IMG/VR virus record: IMGVR_UViG_3300014202_000331
Source: a virus
DNA length: 43,339 bases
Direction: 5' to 3' (one strand)
Made by a program: the position numbers and the translations under genes. Under the pieces are notes generated by a model. That model searched no databases, was not told the origin of the DNA, and saw only the letters and a program-made list of their open reading frames with translations. This document shows, in pieces, positions 33,911 through 35,591 of this stretch (positions are counted from its first letter, which is position 1; each line of letters begins with the position of its first letter).

Positions 33911-34288
33911 CTACCTCTCTTGTTCTTCCATCACCACCGAGGCCCACACGTGCGGCTCGGTGCCATCGGCGACACGCCAGCTACATGCGACCACGTGCCG
34001 CAACGTGTCGTCGCGTACGATGCGCGCCTTCGTCATCGCATCGAGAACGATCTTCTCGACGTTGTCGCCGTCGCATCTGAGCGGCGGCGCGACCATGACG
34101 ATCTCGACGCTCACGCGCCCGTCGAAGCGCTCGGGCCATTCGGCGGCGATGCGTGCCGCGTCCAGCGCACGACACACGCGGGCCTGGTATTCGACCGTCT
34201 TGCGAGGAGTCGACGTGCCTCGCGTGCTCGAGATGCGCGCGCGGGCCTTGGGTACCGCGGGACCTGGGATGCGGACTTGCAGGATCAT
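33911..34288 (-). CDS. rusA: RusA-family Holliday junction resolvase
   Basis: 125 aa. PKARARIS..., CDGDNVEKIVLDAMTKARIVRDDTL (the D-x-D-N..K...D...DD pattern). ATGA overlap with the upstream gene. Confidence 0.8.
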   Translation of the reverse strand: MILQVRIPGPAVPKARARISSTRGTSTPRKTVEYQARVCRALDAARIAAEWPERFDGRVSVEIVMVAPPLRCDGDNVEKIVLDAMTKARIVRDDTLRHVVACSWRVADGTEPHVWASVVMEEQER

Positions 34289-35328
34289 CGAAGCGCCTCA
34301 TGGATCGCGCCGCTCATGATGAGCCGTCCGATGACTTCGGCGCACTGGGGCACGACGGCGTTTCCGATGGCTCGCAGTCGTCGGTTCCGGTTCGGTCGGG
34401 GGCCTCCGTCGCTCGGCCGGACGCGCGGTCCTCTCGGCACGGCTCGCGGCGACTCCCATTCTCGCGGGGCTTCTGCGGGACCACTAGGCCAGCGGTCCAG
34501 CCAGGCGGGAACCCCATGAGTTCCTCGACCCATGCTGGATTGAGCGCCATCTTGGGACCAGCTCGACGAGCCATCGTCTCGAGCGATGCCTTGCCCTTCA
34601 TTGCGTAACTTCCCCGACCGTCGCCCGGATCGCCGTTGTTCGAGCTCCCGTAGCTCGTCGCTGTCGGCGTAGGCCACTGCGCGACCTGACTCGGGAGGGA
34701 CCACTCTCTGCCAGGCCCCTTCCAGTCCCGAGGCACCGCCGTCGCCGGCCTCCGAACGACCGCATCCGTGAGCGTGGTCCCCGCGTGCTGTCCGGGTTTG
34801 CACTTGTCCGTCATCATCGATCCGCTCGAGCTCGCGTCGCTCGCTGTCGCGGTAGGCCACAACGAAGATCCTCTCTCGCCGGTGTGGTGCTCCGACGTCT
34901 GCGGCAGATAGCTGGATGGCGGCCGAACGGTAGCCGAGAGCTCGCAGGTCGTGCCGCACGTGAGGCAGCCAACGCGCCGCCCCGCTCGCCACGTTCTCGA
35001 CGACGGCCCAGGGGGGGGCGAGCTCTTCGAGGACGCGCCGATACTCTCGCCAGAGCCCTGAGCGCTCGCCTTCGAGCCCGGCTCGCTTGCCGGCGCTGGA
35101 GACGTCCTGACAGGGGAATCCTCCGGCCACGAGTCCCACAGGAGCAAGAGTTGCTTTTCCGGCCAATCGCACATCGTTGCAGCTCCTATCTACGCTCGGC
35201 CACCACCTCGACAGCACCGAGCGGCACCCCTCGTCCTGTTCGACCTGCCACACCACGTGACCCATCCCAGCCCGCTCGAGCCCGAGCTCGAGGCCGCCGA
35301 TCCCGCTGAACAGCGAACCGATCTTCAT
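34285..35328 (-). CDS. DNA (cytosine-5)-methyltransferase; central region apparently out of frame (see findings)
   Basis: ATG 35328 (ATGA overlap). Motif I LFSGIGG, IV GGFPCQDVS, VI VVENV, VIII QLSAADVGAPHRRERIFVVA, X RLRAIGNAVVPQ. The middle of this frame is low-complexity, while frame +1 carries WPTPTA and LNPAWVEELMGFPPGWT. Confidence 0.8.
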   Translation of the reverse strand: MKIGSLFSGIGGLELGLERAGMGHVVWQVEQDEGCRSVLSRWWPSVDRSCNDVRLAGKATLAPVGLVAGGFPCQDVSSAGKRAGLEGERSGLWREYRRVLEELAPPWAVVENVASGAARWLPHVRHDLRALGYRSAAIQLSAADVGAPHRRERIFVVAYRDSERRELERIDDDGQVQTRTARGDHAHGCGRSEAGDGGASGLEGAWQRVVPPESGRAVAYADSDELRELEQRRSGRRSGKLRNEGQGIARDDGSSSWSQDGAQSSMGRGTHGVPAWLDRWPSGPAEAPREWESPRAVPRGPRVRPSDGGPRPNRNRRLRAIGNAVVPQCAEVIGRLIMSGAIHEALR

Positions 35329-35591
35329 CGCAGCACCAACCTTCGCGCCATCTCGCACAGGGGGCACCACCCCCCGGCCTGGTGTCCCTCGAGCTCGCCT
35401 CCGCATGCGTCGCACTGCCCCGGCCGCATCAACGGCAGCTTCACGGGCCTTCGCATTGCATCGACGCGGGCGGCGACAGCCTCGCGAACGCGCGGCTGTA
35501 GCTCAGGTTGCGCCCGTAGCCGAAGCTGCCCCCCGGCGTAGTACGCGCTCGCCCCGTCGTCGCGGAGCGTGCCCCATGTCTCGGGGTTCAT
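35325..35591 (-). CDS. Zinc-ribbon protein
   Basis: 88 aa. CDACGG...CPLC. Confidence 0.5.
   Translation of the reverse strand: MNPETWGTLRDDGASAYYAGGQLRLRAQPELQPRVREAVAARVDAMRRPVKLPLMRPGQCDACGGELEGHQAGGWCPLCEMARRLVLR

Follow-up and report, generated by a model that had tools for sequence, protein, structure and literature searches.

Background

Two-chain cytosine-5 DNA methyltransferases are the closest described counterparts of a gene on the minus strand of the viral record IMGVR_UViG_3300014202_000331 from IMG/VR, whose full stretch of 43,339 nucleotides (nt) was analysed here and is referred to as the window. M.EcoHK31I, an Escherichia coli enzyme for the sequence YGGCCR and a member of a restriction-modification system, consists of two polypeptides, and its beta chain has its whole coding sequence inside the alpha gene in another frame (PMC2836561, PMC3404938). 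The alpha chain holds motifs I to VIII and X, the beta chain holds motif IX, and activity needs both. The first 42 or more beta residues are dispensable and beta is translated from internal ATGs, while the predicted recognition domain was placed in alpha, leaving only motif IX in beta (PMC2836561, PMC3404938). M.AquI (CYCGRG) is likewise split into alpha and beta, its small chain carrying the distal variable region with motifs IX and X (PMC3404938). A 2012 paper gives only these two as two-chain enzymes of this type. No description of the nested layout as widespread was found in the literature library searched, which is a limited one whose silence is not proof of novelty.

The window gene has a large open reading frame (ORF), alpha, in frame A and a second ORF, beta, in frame B (+1 relative to frame A). 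As in M.EcoHK31I, the alpha ORF encloses the whole beta ORF on the same strand, and alpha has motifs I to VIII and X without IX, a motif IX-like block being found on beta. The dispensable beta N-terminus of M.EcoHK31I has a parallel in window beta residues 2 to 105, whose sequence is dictated by alpha. The locus departs from the description of M.EcoHK31I in that the WPTxTA repeats, the sole conserved recognition-type blocks between motifs VIII and X, are on beta, and the middle of alpha is an unconstrained linker with no recognition domain there. Its setting also differs from that of a restriction-modification system, since the close neighbours of alpha are a RusA-like resolvase gene on one side and two small ORFs on the other, and the small ORFs have no phage-family match. 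With M.AquI it shares two chains and a break in the variable region, but here motif X is on alpha together with motifs I to VIII, so that alpha must read through the beta-encoding region. Judged by its architecture only, the gene belongs to the M.EcoHK31I kind of nested alpha/beta cytosine methyltransferase.

Phage lambda Rz/Rz1 is another case of complete embedding, in which Rz1 lies wholly within Rz in the +1 frame and both products form one complex. The proteins and their function are unrelated to those considered here, and Rz1 is short, whereas the same-strand overlap of window beta takes up 861 nt of the 1044-nt alpha gene (82%).

Results and discussion

Two reading frames in a methyltransferase gene

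We consider it likely that the locus is made up of two nested genes for one cytosine-5 DNA methyltransferase. Two ORFs, a change of the selected frame along the gene, avoidance of stops in both frames, conserved start signals and wide recurrence were all observed. An earlier note on this DNA, made by a model from the sequence alone, had drawn attention to the gene by claiming that its target-recognition region reads correctly only in the +1 frame. Both of its ORFs were recovered at the coordinates that it gave. Alpha spans 34285-35328 (347 amino acids); frame A is open already from 35415, and ATG 35328 is the probable start. Beta spans 34314-35174 (286 amino acids). The features of the two chains are as follows.

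35293-35310, minus strand: alpha motif I, FSGIGG (S-adenosylmethionine binding)
35104-35124, minus strand: alpha motif IV, GGFPCQD (catalytic Cys)
34990-34998, minus strand: alpha motif VI, ENV
34855-34893, minus strand: alpha motif VIII, GAPHRRERIFVVA
34516-34854, minus strand: alpha linker, residues 159-271 (113 residues), low complexity; open, frame-A sequence not conserved
34438-34515, minus strand: C-terminal alpha block GVPAWLDRWPSGPAEAPREWESPRAV, conserved in the frame of motif X
34345-34380, minus strand: alpha motif X, RLRAIGNAVVPQ, frame A; conserved in homologues
35183-35187, minus strand: beta Shine-Dalgarno sequence AGGAG, 8 nt upstream of the beta ATG; alpha codons GAT AGG AGC
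35172-35174, minus strand: beta start ATG, from alpha codons GAT-G of a conserved Asp-Val
34860-35171, minus strand: beta N-terminal part, residues 2-105, overprinted on alpha motifs IV to VIII
34494-34859, minus strand: beta conserved core, recognition repeats followed by motif IX-like LNPAWVEELMGFPPGWT; frame-B wobble pattern
34836-34859, minus strand: beta block WPTATASD, frame B
34755-34781, minus strand: beta block GTTLTDAVV, frame B
34569-34676, minus strand: beta block WPTPTATSYGSSNNG, frame B
34494-34544, minus strand: beta motif IX-like block LNPAWVEELMGFPPGWT, frame B only
34314-34493, minus strand: beta tail after GWT, reading over the alpha C-terminus

Between GTTLTDAVV and LNPAWVEELMGFPPGWT, frame B also reads WPTPTATSYGSSNNGDPGDGRGSYAMKGKASLETMA. 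The first 7 codons of the alpha block GVPAWLDRWPSGPAEAPREWESPRAV overlap the end of beta motif IX. The beta tail is probably unconstrained, to judge from relatives that stop 5 to 17 codons after GWT. The stretch conserved in frame B only was found to end at about 34494 and not, as had been proposed, at about 34400, frame A (GVPAWLDRWPSGPAEAPREWESPRAV...) being conserved from 34515 downstream in the proteins P0003, P0014 and P0008. The G run that the earlier note took for a junction is at 34398-34402 rather than 34396-34400, and it lies within frame-A-conserved sequence and is not a junction.

Selection alternates between the frames and stops are avoided

The window gene was aligned to three relatives from IMG/VR (L089, L090 and L001), and mismatches were binned by codon phase, frame-A codon position 1 being frame-B codon position 3. 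The mismatches at frame-A positions 1/2/3 were as follows.

35328-34849: 98/75/189, frame-A wobble
34848-34489: 119/55/49, frame-B wobble
34488-34309: 38/25/60, frame-A wobble

The wobble phase switches from A to B and back to A at about 34850 and about 34490, and these points match WPTATASD at its W (34859) and GWT at its T (34494). Between the window and L089, the 121 middle codons show 35 amino-acid changes in frame B and 64 in frame A; in frame A, 53% of the residues differ in the middle versus 20-24% in the flanks. The middles of another pair of loci, L042 and L066, differ by 5 amino-acid changes in frame B and 26 in frame A. Because of the wobble phase and these counts, we read the middle as under purifying selection in frame B and without amino-acid constraint in frame A. 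Upstream, substitutions fall on frame-A wobble positions, which indicates that the sequence of beta residues 2 to 105 is dictated by alpha. The overlap of motif IX with GVPxxxDRWP is a short stretch of truly double-constrained sequence.

The earlier note had regarded an open frame A as expected in a GC-rich gene. This was refuted by a test in which the DNA was shuffled so as to keep the frame-B protein and frame-A stops were counted over the 121 middle codons: 3.7 stops were expected in the window and none was seen (P = 0.010). The frame-A middle was stop-free in all 39 distinct loci, each with 1 to 8 stops expected, giving a summed log10 P of -71, to be read with the caution that phylogenetic independence does not hold among the 39 loci. 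The +1 frame is open across the beta N-terminal part (34860-35171) in 35 of the 39 relatives. These results point to a frame A that is kept free of stops through the middle despite its lack of amino-acid constraint. An alpha frame that is open throughout, a beta frame that is open from an upstream start, alternating selection and the double-constrained overlap together form the pattern expected of two nested genes for the two chains of one enzyme.

Relatives of each frame

Frame A is readily recognised as a methyltransferase: alpha residues 1-169 match PF00145 at 7.5e-38, alpha matches TIGR00675 with 105.7 bits (above the cut-off) and it could be aligned to M.HhaI residues 16-174. Among the PHROGs, frame A was matched to methyltransferase families, PHROG 363 spanning alpha residues 1-339. 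For frame B, the suggestion that its blocks belong to a methyltransferase was borne out as true homology. It matches PHROG 1008 ('DNA methyltransferase') at 9.5e-15 and 86 database proteins, the best at 4.8e-73 (P0122), as well as single-chain methyltransferases that carry the blocks in frame (P0002 at 1.3e-13, P0008 at 9e-6).

The profile search of both frames that had been proposed gave a split answer. PHROGs match both A and B, and Pfam and NCBIfam see alpha residues 1-170 only. Since no Pfam or NCBIfam profile extends past motif VIII in frame B, in the chimera described below or in the single-chain relatives, these profiles cannot discriminate between the frames; motif X, RLRAIGNAVVPQ, is likewise outside the reach of the Pfam profile. 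No Pfam family was found in the top ten beta-profile matches that were scanned. Searches of PDB sequences with beta and with the beta profile returned nothing, giving no solved relative of beta by sequence. The label motif IX for LNPAWVEELMGFPPGWT draws only on two features, the pattern of the block and its place immediately ahead of motif X in single-chain relatives, because Pfam and PDB profiles fail to recognise it.

A conceptual protein read in frame A, then B, then A (the A-B-A chimera) was used as a database query and found two types of match. The first comprises the single-chain P0008, P0002 and P0085, in which the WPTxTA repeats and LNPxWVExLMGFPxGWT are in frame with the catalytic motifs; the alignment of the chimera with P0008 and P0085, another check that had been proposed, runs end to end. 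The second comprises P0003, P0014, P0017, P0046 and others, which match frame A end to end, low-complexity middle included, and carry G(V/L)PxRVDxWPxGxG..WEPPR just before motif X. The earlier note had named homologues that align over their full length in frame A with a conserved middle as evidence against its claim; full-length homologues such as P0003 do exist, but the frame-A middle is unconstrained. P0003, P0014, P0046 and the single-chain P0008 all retain a conserved GVPAWLDRWPSGPAEAPREWESPRAV block in the frame of motif X.

Codon arithmetic connects the two types. VADADGER read in +1 becomes WPTPTASD, and DGLPRRVD becomes xGFPxGWT, so the two types of protein come from one kind of DNA read in different frames. 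The DNA of P0003 (L001) confirms the shifted reading, its +1 frame being SWPTATAGDARASGS...GTSLTDAVVR...ALNPDWVEALMGFPVGWT. Single-chain P0008, P0085 and low-GC IMG/VR loci have the same order of blocks (I to VIII, WPTxTA repeats, LNPxWVExLMGFPxGWT, WPxxPG..WEPPR, GNAVVP), all in one frame, whereas the window form has a +1 shift after motif VIII and a -1 shift after motif IX. The frame-A interval from VIII to X thus lacks a conserved recognition region and motif IX, the conserved blocks being in +1.

Across 40 beta homologues, W106, P107, L211-N212-P213 and G225-W226 are invariant or nearly so. With clusters defined at 50% identity, a profile built from these 40 proteins matched 47,090 of them under an E limit of 1e-3, a count that takes in single-chain enzymes too, and 5,295 under a limit of 1e-30. 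In one database relative, P0143, a beta-type N-terminus continues in frame into WPxxRGQPQHEWEPPR...KLKALGNAVVPQ with motif X; the protein resembles the small chain of M.AquI and can be regarded as an AquI-like relative.

Putative start signals of beta

The window beta ATG (35174) is the first ATG in its frame, 5 codons past the upstream +1-frame stop, and in most distinct loci the first +1-frame ATG likewise comes 0 to 6 codons after that stop. A Shine-Dalgarno core is found 5 to 17 nt upstream of this ATG in 24 of 36 loci, against a background of 13%. The window clade is more uniform: all six members (the window, L001, L002, L086, L089 and L090) have (A/C/G)GGAG, then 8 nt, then ATG. Four of these six use AGG for the Arg here, and all six use GAT for the Asp; in the window genome these are rare choices, AGG making up 6% of Arg codons and GAT 21% of Asp codons. 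Database beta proteins of the clade (P0122 at 4.8e-73, P0123, P0130 and P0131, with MF.. or MS.. N-termini) begin at the same ATG. From these signals we predict that beta has its own translation start inside alpha. A search for an internal promoter for beta revealed none, and beta is therefore probably read from the same mRNA as alpha.

Two other starts of window beta were considered and rejected, as was the idea that the start at the Asp-Val codon pair is universal, which does not agree with the use of GAT in 20 loci and GAC in 17. TTG 34862, just before WPTATASD and with GAGAGG upstream, is missing in relatives. ATG 34817, the start of the database protein P0121, would remove the invariant W106-P107 block.

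The layout in other genomes

Eighty IMG/VR loci were retrieved with the frame-A protein. In about 50 of these (GC 0.42-0.70), frame 0 encodes motifs VIII and X, and +1 the WPTPxA and MGFPxGW blocks. Frame 0 is stop-free from motif I to motif X in all of them, and the opening of frame +1 begins 250-450 nt upstream of VIII and lasts through IX, with the exception of L040 (50 nt), whereas frame +2 has 1 to 11 stops between VIII and IX. The same 0/+1/0 layout occurs in the close relatives L001, L089 and L090, and it is conserved among relatives at 50-70% identity and far beyond.

The layout is not restricted to metagenomic assemblies. It is also present in an E. coli PT62 prophage gene, annotated solely as 'DNA cytosine methyltransferase', and in Klebsiella phage BUCT711 and Ralstonia phage Gerry. 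A search for beta-type proteins gave matches in Salmonella, Acinetobacter, Vibrio, Stenotrophomonas and Pseudomonas phage records. Comparison of the window DNA with cultured phages gave short conserved segments only, and tblastn of window beta against cultured phages gave almost no matches, while an E. coli-type beta query did work.

A gene caller reports an intact gene, as the earlier note had expected, only some of the time. Some records chose alpha and others beta ('hypothetical protein'), and none examined in detail has both; the JGI gene caller, for instance, reported beta alone in L086. The protein database contains P0121, a 167-amino-acid frame-B product of the window itself (34314-34817, start MMTDKCKPG), which means that at least one gene caller split the window locus and reported no intact frame-A gene.

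Several variants were noted. In three loci of low GC (0.36-0.39; L039 1480-2560, L057 750-1850 and L062 1480-2760), the +1 ORF has the WPTPTA repeats only and ends just before motif IX, and RLNPDWVEWLMGFPxxWT is in frame 0 with motif X, so the frame-return point differs by lineage. The close relative L002 (3001-4100, P0001) has an extra frame change: its first WPT block is in +1, the remaining recognition region in frame 0 and motif X in +2, and it was called as a truncated 271-amino-acid protein without motif X. This locus may be a decayed copy or an assembly error. In L088 (1441-3900, P0240), an intein-like insert seems to break the alpha frame at the PCQ motif (...AIVHN|CQPFSFAG), and the beta frame runs without a stop for 779 codons (GC 0.56), more than the overlap model alone explains. 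In the PT62 prophage (L083 2398-3200, WP_230069165.1), the +1 ORF (MSWLFSQALAEEY...LNPQWVEWFMGWPIGWT) begins 4 nt after the annotated alpha GTG and extends over the annotated alpha gene in full; 2 kb upstream is a second gene with the annotation 'DNA cytosine methyltransferase'.

Alternative explanations

The earlier note had left three explanations side by side, namely compensating indels, recoding and dual coding. Only dual coding fits, because the layout is conserved, frame B is selected, frame A is stop-free, frame B is open upstream and there is no slippery site. We nevertheless weighed the other two, together with the possibility that alpha works by itself.

Programmed recoding, in which a +1 shift just after motif VIII and a -1 shift just after motif IX would yield a single chain like P0008 and leave the frame-A middle unread, fares best among these and is still improbable. 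It would account for the end-to-end alignment of the A-B-A protein with P0008 and P0085 and for a selected frame that changes exactly at both boundaries. Neither boundary, however, has a slippery heptamer, a stop-codon-stimulated +1 site or a homopolymer, the DNA being AGG ATC TTC GTT GTG GCC at about 34860 and GGC TGG ACC GCT GGC CTA at about 34490. Recoding requires neither a frame-A middle without stops, as found in 39 of 39 loci, nor a frame B that is open for about 95 codons upstream of its first conserved residue and is equipped with an ATG and a Shine-Dalgarno sequence. The return point also varies, lying after motif IX in the window and before it in the low-GC L039, L057 and L062. To our knowledge, two efficient shifts within one gene would be unprecedented.

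It is less probable again that alpha alone is the enzyme, with its frame-A middle as a novel recognition region and the frame-B text as a fossil or beta as a protein with an unrelated role. The layout records that were examined do name only alpha as a DNA cytosine methyltransferase, and PHROG 363 covers nearly the whole of alpha (residues 1-339). Against this, a frame-A middle that differs at 53% of its residues between the window and L089, with flanks at 20-24%, is without the amino-acid constraint expected of such a region, and it is frame B that has the invariant or nearly invariant W106, P107, LNP and GW in 40 homologues. A fossil would have decayed over relatives spanning GC 0.42 to 0.70, and the beta blocks are the variable region and motif IX of single-chain enzymes.

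Two compensating indels in a single-frame gene, through recent decay to a pseudogene or an error of assembly or sequencing, would give the net frame change of zero and have a parallel in the extra shift of L002 (P0001, called truncated), but they can be set aside almost entirely given the identical layout in independent assemblies, finished phage genomes and a complete E. coli chromosome, the persisting purifying selection in frame B, the avoidance of stops in frame A and the position of the proposed repair site, the G run at 34398-34402, about 100 nt within frame-A-conserved sequence.

A proposed model of a nested enzyme

Under the favoured reading of two nested genes, alpha would be translated straight through from 35328 to 34285 as the catalytic large domain, with motifs I to VIII at its N-terminus and motif X at its C-terminus. 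Its two ends would be joined by the 113-residue linker, whose sequence would be free to drift as long as it stays stop-free. Beta would initiate at its own ribosome-binding site within alpha (AGGAG 35187-35183, ATG 35174) and pass first through a dispensable overprinted N-terminal stretch; its selected part (34859-34494), with the WPTxTA recognition repeats and the motif IX helix, would form the small domain. Alpha and beta would then assemble non-covalently into an active enzyme that methylates phage DNA, most likely for evasion of host restriction. We infer the separate translation of beta, the heterodimer, the methyltransferase activity and the anti-restriction role from the experimentally characterised M.EcoHK31I.

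Several observations weigh against this model. Some of the Shine-Dalgarno-like motifs (GTGGAG) derive from the conserved alpha residues QVE and are thus confounded, and the beta start position is not conserved family-wide, other lineages using other ATGs. The motif IX block was unrecognised by Pfam and PDB profiles in any relative, single-chain enzymes included. AlphaFold2 (AF2) gives no support for a folded small domain: the predicted local distance difference test (pLDDT) score of beta alone is 57.6, with confidence limited to the LNP..GWT helix, and the middle of the A-B-A chimera, the stretch equivalent to the alpha linker, scores below 50. The sequencing runs that were found contain 6% of the sampled contig words, and translation of either chain is a prediction from the DNA.

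Neighbouring genes and base composition

The gene is part of a tight minus-strand trio (33911-35591) formed by an 88-amino-acid ORF (35325-35591), alpha and the RusA-like Holliday-junction resolvase gene (33911-34288). The resolvase gene matches PHROG 140 at 1.9e-11, and the PHROG comparison gave no match for the 88-amino-acid ORF. The members of the trio are joined by two overlaps.

35325-35328, minus strand: ATGA overlap of the stop of the upstream 88-amino-acid ORF with the alpha start
34285-34288, minus strand: ATGA overlap of the alpha stop with the start of the RusA-like resolvase gene (33911-34288)

Third-position G+C over 34495-34863 is 0.65 in frame A and 0.76 in frame B, which reproduces values that the earlier note had counted by hand. 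The range of 0.65-0.76 for the methyltransferase gene is below that of the coding set, 25 long ORFs that were chosen for third-position G+C above 0.80 and used for both G+C and codon usage. The lower value is consistent with a dual-coding constraint, a foreign origin or both. Eight consecutive C also stand on the coding strand at 35011-35018 (plus strand: G8), in the alpha codons for APPW just before motif VI and also in the overprinted part of beta. This run is absent from the relative L089 and is a possible slippage hot-spot.

Implications

The nested layout is known by experiment from one enzyme, M.EcoHK31I, and here it appears to be widespread. It appears to be common in phages and to be annotated as a single gene in the records that were checked, and we regard this as the most interesting lead from the present analysis. 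More tentatively, and with rather more doubt than confidence, we suggest that, in a very large clade of C5-methyltransferases from phages and prophages, a nested beta that carries the whole recognition module is the standard and so far unrecognised architecture. If so, the clade would comprise tens of thousands of sequence clusters and several variants of the frame-return point. Clones of alpha only would then have no activity, and the module that determines specificity would be one now annotated as a hypothetical protein or left without annotation.

There are practical consequences for annotation, since each record that was checked shows only one of the two overlapping genes. Methylome or restriction-modification predictions that are based on alpha only would miss the chain that apparently carries the recognition module. 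'Silent' recoding or codon optimisation of a cloned alpha would destroy beta and probably abolish activity. Naturally split C5-methyltransferases have already been used as platforms for targeted methylation (PMC2836561), and a nested alpha/beta family would supply many more of them.

For the evolution of these genes, the layout would mean that selection alternates between frames along a single gene, one frame being held open merely as a spacer while the other is selected. It would also provide a clean natural case of a protein domain that has been moved out of its chain by paired frame changes.

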